64,000 nt of DNA from Polyangiales bacterium (GTDB lineage Bacteria > Myxococcota_A > Polyangia > Polyangiales > Ga0077539): assembly GCA_044229975.1 (NCBI GenBank), contig JBGARZ010000008.1, positions 192,001-256,000 on the forward strand, in the 5' to 3' direction. Of the stretch, positions 23,369 through 28,194 are shown piece by piece; the stretch's first letter is position 1, and each line of letters starts with the position of its first letter. The notes under the pieces are model-generated. The model was not told the origin of the DNA. It made no database searches and saw nothing but the letters and a program-made list of their open reading frames with translations. Position numbers and translations under genes: made by a program.

Positions 23369-24175
23369 TCAGCCGAAAAGGCGCATGAGCGGGTCGTCGA
23401 CCTCGGTTCGCTGCGCGCACTCCTCGACGAGCTTCTGGAAGACCAGCGGGTGCGGCACGCGGTCGAGTCCCACGGTCCGCCACGCGACGAGCGAAGTGCC
23501 TCGCAGAAACACCACACGCCCCTGCTGGAAGCGCACCAGCTTCAGGTCGCTCCACCGCACCACCGGGCCGCCGAAGGAGACGCCCTCCTGGCTCAGTCGG
23601 ACGTGGTTGAAGGTCAGCGTCTCACCGTCGCGGAGAGCCGCGCGCGCCGCGTCGAGGTGCGTCGTCGAGCAGCGTCTCAAGATCGGGTTGGCGATGCGCT
23701 CGACGTCGGGCAGGCGCAGCGGGACCTTGTGCGCAACGCCCGCGTGATCGACCAGCCGCAGCGCGTCGATCTGCGCGATGCCGCCCAGGATGGAGGGTGG
23801 CTGTGACAGCTCGAACCACACCGTGTCGACCTCGTCGTAGGCCACCACGTCGCGCTTGCCCCACCGGGTGACCACCACCCCGTCGGCGTGCATGTCCACG
23901 TAGACCTTGCGCGCGTGGAGCGGCCCCAGCGCGCCGACCGCGAAGACCACGATCCCGGGCAGGATCCCGAGGAGCGACATCGCGCCGACCTTCGCCACGG
24001 CCACCATGGCGACGAACAAGGCCGCCACGACCACCCCCATCATCATCGCCGGCACCAGCGCGAGCGCGAGGCTCGGCGGGCGGTGCGACGAGCGCAGCGG
24101 ACCCAACGCTTCGACGGGATCACTCGCGGGCTCTGGGGCCGGGGCTTCGGGCGTGCGGTACGGCGGCGATGGCAT
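23369..24175 (-). CDS. Membrane protein with PH-like soluble domains (DUF6585-like)
   Basis: N-terminal PYR motif, two TM helices, then repeated beta-rich domains. Confidence 0.65.
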   Translation of the reverse strand: MPSPPYRTPEAPAPEPASDPVEALGPLRSSHRPPSLALALVPAMMMGVVVAALFVAMVAVAKVGAMSLLGILPGIVVFAVGALGPLHARKVYVDMHADGVVVTRWGKRDVVAYDEVDTVWFELSQPPSILGGIAQIDALRLVDHAGVAHKVPLRLPDVERIANPILRRCSTTHLDAARAALRDGETLTFNHVRLSQEGVSFGGPVVRWSDLKLVRFQQGRVVFLRGTSLVAWRTVGLDRVPHPLVFQKLVEECAQRTEVDDPLMRLFG

Positions 24176-24328
24176 CGTGTGGCGCCGATCATCGACTCCG
24201 TGAAGGCGCCGCCGCAACTTCGAGCGCTCGCCCGCGCAGACGAGCGCGACCCGCTGGGCGTCGGCATCGGCCGTTCGGGTAGACTCGCGCGCCATGCGGG
24301 GGAAGACGTTCGTGAGAGAGACTTCTTG

Positions 24329-25378
24329 ATGGCGGTCAGACGTCGCTCAGGCCCCGGTCGGAAGCGCGGCGCGTACTCGCAGGCCGAGCGCATCCTGCGA
24401 CTGCACGCGGCCCTGCTCGACGGTCGCATCGTCCGCGTCCCCGAGTTTGCCGAGGAGCTGGAGATTTCCGTTCGACAGGTGCAGCGCGACCTCGCGGTGG
24501 TGCGCGGCCACCTCGGCGACCGGCTCGCGCAGCGCGACGACGGCGCGTGGATCGTGCGGCGGGAGCTCGCGTCGGCGGCCGATCGTCGGAGCGCGCGGTC
24601 GGCGATCCTGGGCGTGGCGATCGGCGCGAAGCTGTCGTCGTCGCTGTGGGGCGAGCGGGCGGCGCGTCGGCTCCGCGCGCGGGTGGACGGGCTCATCTCG
24701 GGCCTCGGTGACTCGGACGCGTCGCGCTTCGAGGGGTGGTCCCGGCGCATCGCCGTCGTGTCGCAGGGACAGAAGAACTACGCGGGTCGCCCCGAGGTCG
24801 CGCAGCGGCTCGACCAGATGCTCGAAGCGATGATCCGTTGCAGCGTGGTGAGGCTCACGTATCTCTCGCACTCGCGGGCGATGCAGGGTCTGTCGGCGCG
24901 CGAGCTCGTCGTGAACCCGCTGGGGCTCATCCACTACCGCGACGGCGTGTACTTCGTCGTGGAGGTCACGGGTGGTGCGGATGCAGAGGAGAAGCGGGGG
25001 CGGCGCATCATGCTGGCGCTCGATCGCATCGGGGAGGTGGGCTTCGTGGGGGAGTCGTTCACGATGCCGCGGGGCTTCGACGCGCAGGCGTTTCTGGGGG
25101 AGGCGTTTGGCCTGTGGCGGGAGGGCGCGATCGAGGACGTCGAGGTCGAGGTGGACGCCGCCCACGCGCGGTGGGTGCGCGAGCGGAGCATCCACGCGTC
25201 ACAGCGCTTCGAGGAGCGCCCCGACGGGAGGCTGCGGGTGCACCTGCGCGTGGACGGACTCCACGAGGTCTCCGAGTGGGTGCTGTCGCTGGGGGACTTC
25301 GCGGAGGTCATCGGGCCGCCCGCGCTACGGGAGATGGTGGCGAAGCGCCTGCGGACGGCGGCGGCGCGGTACGAGTGA
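24329..25378 (+). CDS. wHTH-WYL-WCX transcriptional regulator (YafY/DriD/PafBC-like)
   Basis: wHTH AEELEISVRQVQRDL; WYL VNPLGLIHYRDGVYFV...LALDRI; FDAQAFLGEAFG; WCX WVLSLGDFAEVIGPPALR. Confidence 0.93.
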   Translation: MAVRRRSGPGRKRGAYSQAERILRLHAALLDGRIVRVPEFAEELEISVRQVQRDLAVVRGHLGDRLAQRDDGAWIVRRELASAADRRSARSAILGVAIGAKLSSSLWGERAARRLRARVDGLISGLGDSDASRFEGWSRRIAVVSQGQKNYAGRPEVAQRLDQMLEAMIRCSVVRLTYLSHSRAMQGLSARELVVNPLGLIHYRDGVYFVVEVTGGADAEEKRGRRIMLALDRIGEVGFVGESFTMPRGFDAQAFLGEAFGLWREGAIEDVEVEVDAAHARWVRERSIHASQRFEERPDGRLRVHLRVDGLHEVSEWVLSLGDFAEVIGPPALREMVAKRLRTAAARYE

Positions 25379-25433
25379 GGCCGCCTTCGGACCGGGTGTG
25401 GTCGCGTCCCGCGCCTGCACCACCGGGCAAGCG

Positions 25434-27358
25434 ATCGGCATAGGGGCGGCCCCTCCGTGAGGAGGAGCCGACCCCTGCCACACCACCGGACAAGCGGGTC
25501 CGCATCCGGCGGTTCGGACGGTTGAGGTCACCTCCGTAGCCTCCACAACCCGAGGCTGTCGAACCAACTGGGTCGGAGCGTGAAGCCCAGGCGGAGCGCG
25601 CGGCGCCACCAGCCACCGGCCGAGGCCACCGACTTCCAGCTTGCTTCGTCCCCTTGTCCAAGGGCGCGCAGCGACTGGTAGATCGTGATGCCTCGCTTCC
25701 AGTGCTTCAGTTGCACCATCCGAAGGCGACGGCGAATCCACTCGTCCAGCCCCTCGAAGAGCTTCGTCTGCTGCGTGAGGCGGTAGTACGCCCACCACCC
25801 ACGCAGGTACCGATTCAGCCTCTCGATCAGTTGCACCAGACTGCGACCCGCCGTCCGGCTCGTGAGCTCCCGCACACGCGCCTTGAACGCCTCTTGCGAC
25901 TTCGCCGACACCCCTCGCTTCACTTCTCCGCCGTGCGCGTAGAACTGAAAGCCCAGGAACTTCCGTCCCTTGACCGGCGCCACCGCGCTCTTGGACTCGT
26001 TGACCCGGAGGTGCAGCGACGCGAAGCGCTCCCGCAGGAATGCCATCACTCGCTCGCCCGCCCGCTCCGACCTCACGTACACGTTGAGGTCGTCGGCGTA
26101 GCGCACGAACGCGTGACCGCGCTGCTCCAACTCCTTGTCCACTTCGTCCAGAAGCACGTTCGCCAGCAGTGGTGACAGCGGGCCGCCTTGCGGCGTTCCC
26201 TCCGTCCGCGCCGTCGCGATCCCGTCGGCCATCATCCCGGCCTCCAGGTAGCGACGGATGAGCCTCAGCAGGCGCTTGTCCTCGATGCGTTTGGCCAACC
26301 GGCCCATCAGCACGTCGTGGTTCACGCGGTCGAAGAACGCTTCGAGGTCCACGTCCACCACCACCCCGCGCCCCTCCTGGACGTAGCGCTGTGCGACGAC
26401 AATCGCGTCGTGCGCGCTGCGCCCCGGGCGGAACCCGTAGCTGTGCTGTGAGAAGGTCGGATCGAATCGAGGCTGAAGCACCTGGAGGATCGCCTGTTGG
26501 AGGAGACGATCCAGGGCCGTCGGGATGCCGAGAGTCCTCGTGCCGCCCGACGCCTTGGGGATCTCGCACGATCTCACCGGCTGCGGTTGGTAGCGCCCCG
26601 CGAGGAGGTCCTCGCGCAGACGCGGCCAGTGCACACGCAGGTGGGCCGCGAGATCCTTCGTCTCCATCCCGTCCACTCCGGGGCTGCCCCGGTTGCTCTG
26701 CACCCGCTGGAGCGCCCGCAAGAGGTTGTCCCTTCCGAGGACCGCCTCCAGCAAGGCGCTGGTGCCCGAGTGCTCGTCTCCTTTCGTCGCCGTGGGGTCT
26801 TCCTCGCGGGGCTGCGCGTTGAGGGCTTCACCCTCGTCGCGCCTCCCTCGCCCCGGTGGTGTCCCGGGCATCTGAGGCGGTTCCCTTTTGAGACTCATGG
26901 TCGATGCACCCTCCCTTCCGTTTGGTCCTTTGCGCGGCCGTCGGCCCTTCGTCGTGGCGTTCCCCGTCGTGTCTCCGACGTCGTTGGCGACGTCGGCGCG
27001 GGAGCCCAGGTTTTCGGACGCGCTACTACGACCTCTGCTGACTTCCTGCGCCGCACGTTGGTGTGTGTCGCCCTTTCAGGCGTGAAGCAGGATCTCCCCG
27101 GGTAAGAAACGCTGGCTTTCACGGCGCAACCGCCCGATCTACCGCACGGTCTCTTGGTCATTGGAGCTTCGCGGCTCCTTGCCCGCTCGCCCCAGACCGC
27201 ACGGCCTCACATCGGCTTTCTGTCCGTCGGCTCGCCGTTTCGCGTCGGGCTTCCTTCAGACAGTCCGTTGCCTCGCTGCCCTTGCCTCTCGCGTGGATCG
27301 TCATGACCTACTTTCCCGGGGACTTGCACCCCGAAGCCAACGCCCATGCCGGGCGCAC
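25434..27358 (-). mobile_element. Full-length group II intron, class IIC-like
   Basis: 5' end GTGCGCCCGGCATGGGCG at 27358; domain V GAACCGCCGGATGCGGACCCGCTTGTCCGGTGGTGTG with CCG triad; domain VI ending CCTATGCCGAT at 25434. Removing it restores the flanking inverted-repeat arm. Confidence 0.93.
25528..26898 (-). CDS. ltrA: Group II intron reverse transcriptase/maturase (no endonuclease domain)
   Basis: RT0 NRGSPGVDG, IPKASGGTRTLGIPT, SYGFRPGRSAHDA, GTPQGGPLSPLLAN, YADD, domain X LNRYLRGWWAYY. Confidence 0.96.
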   Translation of the reverse strand: MSLKREPPQMPGTPPGRGRRDEGEALNAQPREEDPTATKGDEHSGTSALLEAVLGRDNLLRALQRVQSNRGSPGVDGMETKDLAAHLRVHWPRLREDLLAGRYQPQPVRSCEIPKASGGTRTLGIPTALDRLLQQAILQVLQPRFDPTFSQHSYGFRPGRSAHDAIVVAQRYVQEGRGVVVDVDLEAFFDRVNHDVLMGRLAKRIEDKRLLRLIRRYLEAGMMADGIATARTEGTPQGGPLSPLLANVLLDEVDKELEQRGHAFVRYADDLNVYVRSERAGERVMAFLRERFASLHLRVNESKSAVAPVKGRKFLGFQFYAHGGEVKRGVSAKSQEAFKARVRELTSRTAGRSLVQLIERLNRYLRGWWAYYRLTQQTKLFEGLDEWIRRRLRMVQLKHWKRGITIYQSLRALGQGDEASWKSVASAGGWWRRALRLGFTLRPSWFDSLGLWRLRR

Positions 27359-27672
27359 AAAGCGAGCGCCCCTCCGGGGCTTCCGGAAGACCACCATTGC
27401 CACCAGGCCGCAAGCGGCCAGGGCCCACGCCGCGGCGTCAGCGAGGCGCGCGACGGTCGGGTCCGCAGTCGTCGGAGACTGCCAACGTTGCCGTTGCGCG
27501 CCGCGCTGACGCCGCGGCGTGGAACCAGAACCGTGAGCCTGTCCGTAGTGGTCGATCCCTTCCGGAAGCCCCGGAGGGGCGCTCGCTTTTGCTTGCCCGG
27601 TGGTGCAGGCGCGGAACGCGACCAACCCCGGTCCGAAGCGGCCCCAGCGACCGCCTGAGTCCACCTGTTGAG

Positions 27673-27768: not shown

Positions 27769-28194
27769 ATGAGCCTGAGTGTCGTGACCCATCTGAACCT
27801 GCGCGGCGATGCCCGTGCGGCGCTTGAGTTCTATCGATCCGTCTTCGGTGGTGACCTGACCATCGTCTCGTACCAGGACGCTGGAAACGTGCAGAACCCG
27901 GCCGAGGCCAACCAGGTGATGTGGGGACAGGTCGCGGCCGCCAACGGCTTCCGCGTGATGGCCTACGACGTCCCGTCGAGCCGGCCATGGAGCCGCGGGG
28001 AGGACCCCTTCTTCGTCTCGCTCCGCGGCGAGACGACCGACGAGGTCACCGCGTTCTGGGAGAAGCTCGCCGTCGGCGCGACCGTCGTGCAGCCGCTGGC
28101 CCCCGCGCAGTGGGCGCCCGTCTACGGCATGCTGAAAGACCGCTTCGGCATCACCTGGGTCGTCGACGTCGTCAGCCCGTACGCCGCGCCCTGA
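27769..28194 (+). CDS. VOC/glyoxalase family protein, PhnB-like
   Basis: HLNLRGDARAALEFYRSVFGG, QVMWGQV, WAPVYGMLKDRFGITW; AAGGAG RBS. Confidence 0.92.
   Translation: MSLSVVTHLNLRGDARAALEFYRSVFGGDLTIVSYQDAGNVQNPAEANQVMWGQVAAANGFRVMAYDVPSSRPWSRGEDPFFVSLRGETTDEVTAFWEKLAVGATVVQPLAPAQWAPVYGMLKDRFGITWVVDVVSPYAAP

Follow-up and report, generated by a model that had tools for sequence, protein, structure and literature searches.

A group IIC intron at a fixed bond in one arm of repeated, gene-less palindromic elements of a Polyangiales genome

How does an intron that lacks an endonuclease come to occupy one arm of a long palindrome and leave the matching target in the other arm empty? This question is raised by a 64,000-nt stretch of DNA from a Polyangiales bacterium (positions 192,001 to 256,000 of contig JBGARZ010000008.1, assembly GCA_044229975.1), hereafter the window, in which a group IIC intron encoding its own reverse transcriptase (RT) interrupts a palindromic element (Table 1). 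An initial annotation, made from the letters of the window, had suggested that the lineage of this intron targets a multicopy repeat. Across this genome (G000; 10.0 Mb in 39 contigs, 93% complete, with rough gene calls that cover 80% of the genome and miss short genes), the intron is found at one fixed bond, in one arm of each of eight gene-less palindromes. These insertions are probably the outcome of eight separate retrohoming events into single-stranded lagging-strand template.

When the intron is excised from the window in silico, its two exons join into an 86-nt arm, in which 81 of the 86 positions are identical to the twin arm, as had been recognized initially. The target is the short linker that joins the two hairpins of the arm, and it consists of a hairpin, a 5-nt gap, the intron-binding site (IBS) 1 CTTT and an IBS3 C. 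The small inner hairpin, which the initial annotation had also picked out, is backed by a 5-bp stem that is conserved, with varying loops, across all eight 5' exons in the genome, its folding energy being unremarkable. The twin target had been described as the same target left unoccupied, and it is indeed empty but not identical, since its first 3' exon base (+1) is a T where all eight occupied sites have a C facing the G of exon-binding site (EBS) 3. This T alone need not block the twin, because an EBS3 G faces a +1 T in two relatives (L117 and L133). The first 16 bases of the 3' exon (25418-25433, minus strand) match the 3' half of the intron's own domain 5 (D5; near 25481-25496) at 15 positions. 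This likeness was set aside, being limited to some arm variants and probably a product of chance in CCGG-rich DNA.

Judged by its sequence, the window element is a class IIC intron with an RT predicted to lack an endonuclease and with a short EBS1 and an EBS3, which agrees with the initial assignment. On the minus strand, it starts with a canonical GUGCG at 27358 and ends with AU at 25434. Domain 1 (D1) is matched by Rfam RF02001 with 105.7 bits (27107-27277), the D1 fragment aligning end to end, and D5 and domain 6 (D6) are matched by RF00029 with 30.5 bits, which is under the gathering score. The D5/D6 region folds much more strongly than shuffled sequences (z -5.1), D5 forming a short hairpin that has a bulge, CGC at the base of its stem and a 4-nt deletion in the Rfam alignment. 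A short D5 with a CGC triad is a trait of group IIC. The RT/maturase, which stops at residue 456, just short of D5, matches TIGR04416 (418 bits) and, in Pfam, only RVT_1 and GIIM. Its closest solved structure is the GsI-IIC RT (PDB 6AR1, E 2.6e-128, 432 bits), compared with 138 and 119 bits for the 6ME0 maturase and LtrA, respectively. The class C assignment of the RT is by similarity, the RT trees having been built from rows without named reference RTs. The AAGG that the initial annotation proposed as EBS1 lies in the D1 loop of the Rfam alignment, and it pairs with the IBS1 CTTT, one of the pairs being a G-T wobble.

The genome contains eight 5' ends and eight 3' ends of the intron, belonging to five full copies, which differ by 0-1 base, and to three copies split at contig ends. 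The same arm position precedes all eight 5' ends. The outer arm continues after seven of the eight 3' ends and the eighth runs into another palindrome starting with C, so the 3' exon beyond +1 is dispensable. An arm profile search of the genome gave 41 hits, and the inventory of the repeat comprises eight intron-bearing doublets, three empty doublets, one single arm, one divergent doublet and nine isolated outer halves. The repeat is thus multicopy, with about a dozen elements, as had been anticipated, and all other copies of the intron lie at the same nucleotide of its arms rather than after unrelated hairpins. No element is doubly filled, each occupied element holding a single intron. Among the empty targets, one doublet (C32:718537) has CGTT as IBS1 in both arms, the target of the arm on C11 lies on the disfavoured strand alone, and two elements (C36:156176 and C23:188731, the latter not orientable) have intact targets. 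About 8 of 10 suitable arms are therefore filled, against 0 of 11 on the other strand.

Sequence identities date these insertions relative to their hosts. The intron copies are 99.9-100% identical, whereas the arms that host them are 86-95% and the spacers 36-78% identical, so the host elements are much older than the intron copies, which argues for separate insertions. Eight near-identical copies in diverged hosts also suggest that the intron splices and is retromobile. Inspection by eye places the occupied arm at one end of the polar spacer in some elements and at the opposite end in others, and it revealed no target-site duplication where seven of the elements border on the surrounding DNA. 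Contigs from four DNA sequencing runs cover the intron, and among those listed none spans the site or shows an intron-free allele. No RNA run was among the sequencing runs listed. Arms are slightly more similar within an element (0.92) than across elements (0.90), and some arm pairs share private variants that extend into the flanking DNA, a hint that one arm may be copied from, or converted by, the other.

What is the repeat? The initial annotation likened it to repetitive extragenic palindromic (REP) sequences or REPINs, an identity that is not supported. The arm is present in 8 of 40 relatives, all of the same family, and in two of them (G001, C223; G007, C794) the same arms flank a gene for a 143-aa protein and form the terminal inverted repeats (TIRs) of this Y1/HUH transposase gene. 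The protein matches Pfam Y1_Tnp and scores 64.6 bits with the NCBIfam IS200 model for IS200/IS605 transposases (cut-off 55), against 21.9 bits with the REP_Tyr model for REP-associated enzymes (cut-off 80). A Y---Q--HH signature is present in the L059 transposase protein. Of 34 Y1 loci examined, 28 match this transposase, and 19 of these 28 have flanking inverted repeats, several sharing by eye the plan of outer hairpin, short linker and inner hairpin. The arms of about 86-90 nt in roughly a dozen elements differ from the 20-40 bp and high copy number of REPs, and the GGGGWSAS motif is missing from this arm, although it is found in the arms of another Y1 locus (L002). The repeat in G000 is best read as a gene-less dimer of a TIRtron-type element and not as a classic REP. 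These dimers may be non-autonomous derivatives of this transposase's element, and may have been moved by it. They were also considered as simple deletion remnants of the transposase gene, but no convincing match was found in their spacers (best E 0.012, 11 nt).

Sister introns show how far the association extends. Of 42 distinct junctions, counting those of the intron's own copies, 31 have EBS1-IBS1 pairing free of mismatches, and EBS3-IBS3 pairs are Watson-Crick at 16 of the 17 junctions with both ends resolved (10 G-C, 5 A-T and 1 T-A, the last being A-A). RT trees place the intron in a six-row group composed of two well-supported triplets, the group itself having a support of 86/73 in a careful 22-row tree and of 99 in a quick 54-row tree. 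Five of the six rows are in palindromic arms, and the clade uses four EBS1 sequences besides AAGG. A related multicopy arm, of which exact copies without an insertion exist (47 matches in G012), hosts the introns L007 of G006 (EBS1 TCAT) and L080 of G012 (CAAC). In 23 loci with arms of this type, no transposase gene turned up between them, so that the family link is by architecture only. In G044, three copies (GCTA) have 3' exons that match the arms of a transposase locus, L163, two of them lying in full doublets and L079 having a different 5' exon. L081 (CTAT) occupies a single arm of a doublet that shares the inner hairpin, intron fragments follow homologous arms at the same bond in G007 and a few bases away from it in G015, and a more distant intron, L026, is inside the arms of other Y1 loci. 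Across arm families, insertion points shift by several bases, tracking EBS1. Relatives at 56-63% identity are mostly found after terminator-like hairpins, junctions being resolved for part of 80 loci, and a scan of 120 genomes of the order added three junctions in two genomes, where the preceding hairpins look terminator-like or unrelated on inspection by eye. At G008:C47, a candidate second intron was dropped for want of a recognizable D5. Two further relatives are L085, a IIC intron that immediately follows another intron copy's 3' end at a junction where EBS1 and IBS1 do not pair, and L088, whose RT is 62% identical and whose site resembles an attC site on visual inspection.

The idea that the lineage targets the repeat thus survives in a weaker form. 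Several sister introns are in similar arms, yet the closest relative is not, and the arm would be a favoured, repeated landing pad rather than an obligate partner. A bolder proposal, which we offer tentatively and hold to be rather less than probable, is that the clade has come to specialize in the arms that end Y1-transposase (TIRtron) elements, which would add a third class of target to terminators and attC sites, the RT reading the two-hairpin arm, possibly at the transposase's own bond, and EBS1 being re-tuned for each arm family. Were this true, the intron would follow the spread of the repeat, and the IS66 copy of the closest relative (see below) would be an escape from habit.

The one-arm pattern may be explained by replication. 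Each element presents the target once per strand, within 300 bases, so replication polarity could pick one arm. The octamer GGGNAGGG, which we take to be the KOPS motif (FtsK-orienting polar sequence), is strongly skewed on most contigs and is enriched on the intron-sense strand in five of six independent regions, which hold seven of the eight copies (99:43, 47:28, 27:12, 167:60 and 57:19; sign probability 0.03). GC skew at four-fold sites, on a 200-kb scale, agrees for the same seven copies, and rplB and rpoB are on the octamer-rich strand of their contigs. Seven of the eight copies would therefore be on the strand that serves as lagging-strand template, the eighth being the C23/C26 copy, in line with the strand bias expected initially. 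For the three G044 copies, the same strand counts are 7:4, 7:12 and 10:9. Raw GC skew alone was rejected as a strand marker, being too noisy, and a principal component analysis of 6-mers gave a weak positional signal (lag-1 r 0.24). There is a precedent in RmInt1, also endonuclease-less, which prefers the lagging-strand template (PMC8632793; here and below, published systems are described from the available portions of the sources).

Under this account, an intron ribonucleoprotein would reverse-splice into the single-stranded lagging-strand template after the inner hairpin, and its RT would prime on the nascent lagging strand. Replication polarity would select one arm, leaving the twin arm on the wrong strand. 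Insertion into a non-coding arm would cost the host little, and four-base changes in EBS1 would carry sister introns to other arm families or to the IS66 hairpin.

Could the intron instead use any hairpin followed by a suitable IBS1 and IBS3, copies in genes and regulatory regions being purged and the arms being the commonest harmless match? Hairpin-plus-IBS1 targeting is documented for IIC introns (PMC1702495, PMC3898094), which are also found after 'other inverted repeats' and tolerate spacings of 3-11 nt, although stem-loops are not equivalent (Toor 2006, PMC1702495). The hairpin of the twin arm (27568-27580) meets a terminator-like scan, one copy has a foreign 3' exon, the closest relative is at an IS66 hairpin and distant relatives follow terminator-like hairpins. 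Under a crude target rule (a GC-rich stem of at least 5 bp, a gap of 0-8 nt, CYTT, then C or T), the genome has 1,496 sites, of which 1,107 are in called genes, where insertions might be purged. Among the 389 sites outside genes, 183 are on the favoured strand, 62 of them with the spacing of the arm, and all are intron-free, these counts being upper bounds (short genes were missed) from which selection may have removed some insertions. The finding of 8 of 8 copies in arms, against about 60 empty non-genic sites of the same strand and spacing, has a probability of 4e-9 if all competed equally. The filling of about 8 in 10 suitable arms also exceeds the published occupancy of two terminator-type class C introns (2/17 and 3/73; PMC3522654), and sister introns with a different EBS1 are likewise in arms. 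We thus regard generic targeting followed by survival as unlikely. A repeated hairpin unit at C11:434123-439057, which is empty, also fits the crude rule. This unit presumably resembles a CRISPR repeat of type I-E.

A narrower alternative concerns the one-arm pattern only. Both arms would be targets, and double insertions, amounting to a 2-kb inverted repeat, would be deleted, selected against, lost in assembly or simply absent by chance. Zero doubles would arise by chance with p = 0.13, three copies are split at contig ends, and RmInt1 fills leading-template sites later (PMC8632793). However, the loss of doubles leaves the single inferred replication polarity of seven of the eight single insertions unexplained, and we doubt that it accounts for the pattern.

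Entry might also be aided by the Y1 transposase, which would nick or melt the linker of the arm and thus provide single-stranded DNA or a primer. In G000 and G005 (two cases each) and in G008, another palindromic element adjoins the arm at the intron's bond, and the same linker is used by sister introns in the arms of other Y1 genes. On the other hand, G000 yielded no cognate transposase, the strand pattern agrees with replication, insertion into IS66 requires no Y1 enzyme, and the insertion points, which follow EBS1, are several bases apart in different arm families. Help from the transposase is accordingly very improbable. As for the composite element envisaged initially, in which a single insertion was followed by transposase-driven spread of arm-plus-intron units, it would fit with all copies lying singly in elements, but identical introns in diverged spacers of several subfamilies, occupied at either end, largely refute it and leave it scarcely credible.

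The account we prefer, separate retrohoming into lagging-strand template at a repeated arm, has to be set against a series of observations that do not favour it. The arm and the 5' exon fold as DNA no better than shuffled sequences (z 0.29, -0.55 and -0.26), so DNA folding does not account for what separates the arm from the roughly 60 empty sites fitting the rule, and the minimum-energy fold of the window copy's 5' exon is a different hairpin, not the small inner one. As for polarity, the C23/C26 copy has an octamer count of 32:38, although it points away from dnaA, and the surroundings of dnaA on C23 are weakly opposite to expectation (14:10 on the left, 18:24 on the right). Neither octamer nor GC skew makes the expected flip at the dnaA-dnaN-recF-gyrB cluster (C23:219703-228934), the local octamer count near the two C4 copies is a tie (13:12), tRNAs give no signal (the G-rich strand has 40 of the 79), and the 39-contig assembly returned no match to 16S rRNA by which contigs might be oriented. 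That no element is doubly filled does not reach significance by itself. The six-row clade has a support of no more than 86/73 in the careful tree, and the closest relative, in G005 (EBS1 GGAT, 83-84% amino acid identity), is at the start of an IS66 tnpB. Finally, the failure to find the cognate transposase in a 93% complete genome, and the lack of a match between the spacers and the interior of the autonomous element, speak against the proposed origin of the dimers.

Table 1. Features of the intron, its target element and flanking genes in the window.
Feature	Coordinates	Strand	Details
Group IIC intron	25434..27358	minus	1,925 nt, intact; one of eight genome copies
5' exon, inner part of occupied arm	27359..27389	minus	5-bp hairpin 27368-27380, 5-nt gap, IBS1 CTTT 27359-27362
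3' exon, outer part of occupied arm (outer hairpin)	25379..25433	minus	IBS3 is C at 25433
Empty twin arm	27559..27643	plus	target 27589|27590, T at +1
Spacer of palindromic element	27390..27558		169 nt, about 70 nt of it belonging to the element
Second, abundant REP-like palindrome nested in spacer	27425..27522		
Intron-encoded RT/maturase	25528..26898	minus	456 aa, YADD at residue 267, without endonuclease domain
Domains 5 and 6	25434..25514	minus	short D5, CGC at foot; Rfam alignment and folding
EBS1 (AAGG)	27177..27180	minus	D1 loop of Rfam alignment; EBS1-IBS1 covariation
EBS3 (G)	27139..27139	minus	covariation; pairs with 3' exon base +1
WYL/WCX-domain gene	23888..25378	plus	ends at outer edge of occupied arm
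VOC/glyoxalase gene	27769..28194	plus	comes after twin arm

Other palindromic elements are present in G000. Three Y1 transposase genes, L001 (C23:67598), L002 (C23:54594) and L003 (C34:47434), have inverted arms of their own, 94-135 nt long, with 28, 54 and 82 arm matches in the genome, respectively, none of which holds this intron, the CYTT-Y motif being found in 8 of 164. L004 (C26:69582-72776) is a weak Y1_Tnp match (71082) inside long arrays in which a palindromic unit of 53-54 nt is repeated in tandem. This unit has hundreds of copies in the genome and is nested in two spacers, including that of the window. The palindromes that adjoin the arm at the intron's bond are found in three genomes, in G000 at C34:360136-360614 and C32:8732 and otherwise at L057, L073 and L075. 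The element on C34 contains a dimer of L001 transposase arms, is bounded by a 4-base direct repeat, and has an intron copy at its edge.

How does this intron compare with known systems? It is not a new mechanism but a variant of known IIC hairpin homing with built-in strand control, and what sets it apart is that the transposase can be named, that a series of EBS1 variants occurs on related arms and that the two strands give a control. The two-armed element provides a ready-made control for the IIC strand rule, with eight filled arms and no filled twin, and through it a IIC intron is connected with the termini of little-studied Y1 transposase elements, whose genes are seen to have long structured arms. 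With five EBS1 variants occurring naturally among sister introns in related arms, the hairpin choice of the IIC RT becomes directly testable, which matters for retargeting class IIC introns. RmInt1 is a IIB intron, not a class IIC one. It resembles the present intron in having no endonuclease and in homing to a multicopy mobile element, ISRm2011-2, at lagging-strand-template sites first, but it interrupts a transposase gene, whereas the intron described here is in non-coding arms after a hairpin (PMC8632793).

On the side of the repeat, the likeness is to TIRtrons (TIRYT) and their TIR dimers (Di Nocera 2013, PMC3733652), in which a tyrosine-transposase gene lies between long inverted repeats and gene-less dimers occur in moderate number. 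The arm found here differs by lacking GGGGWSAS, a motif of some TIRs, and the transposase by its class 1 type Y---Q--HH. The main text of that report does not contain the word 'intron', and a literature search of limited coverage listed no description of IIC introns within REP or TIR repeats, so that the claim of absence is weak. The transposase shares with TnpA-Y1 subclass 1.2 (Quentin 2018, bioRxiv 10.1101/279083) a short protein, Y---Q--HH and a low copy number, a placement by signature rather than by the profiles of that study. Subclass 1.2 is described as generally devoid of typical IS200 end structures and mostly cyanobacterial or from Bacteroidetes, whereas here 19 of 28 loci have flanking inverted repeats and the kin records are from Myxococcota.

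Among IIC introns, the terminator-type B.h.I1 (Toor 2006, PMC1702495) and GsI-IIC (PDB 6AR1) similarly lack an endonuclease, have a 4-nt EBS1 and an EBS3, and insert a few bases past a hairpin. In contrast to these, all eight sites here are one position in one repeat family, with about 8 of 10 suitable sites filled, and the window intron, on the minus strand between WYL and VOC neighbours that are both on the plus strand, does not follow a gene of its own strand. The IIC-attC introns, with the consensus TTGT/T, are likewise a IIC lineage on a structured site of another mobile system, used in a strand-specific manner (PMC7923331). They differ in that no attC core sites are present here, IBS1/IBS3 is CTTT/C at all eight sites, EBS1 varies within the clade, and the host is the terminal repeat of a Y1 element.

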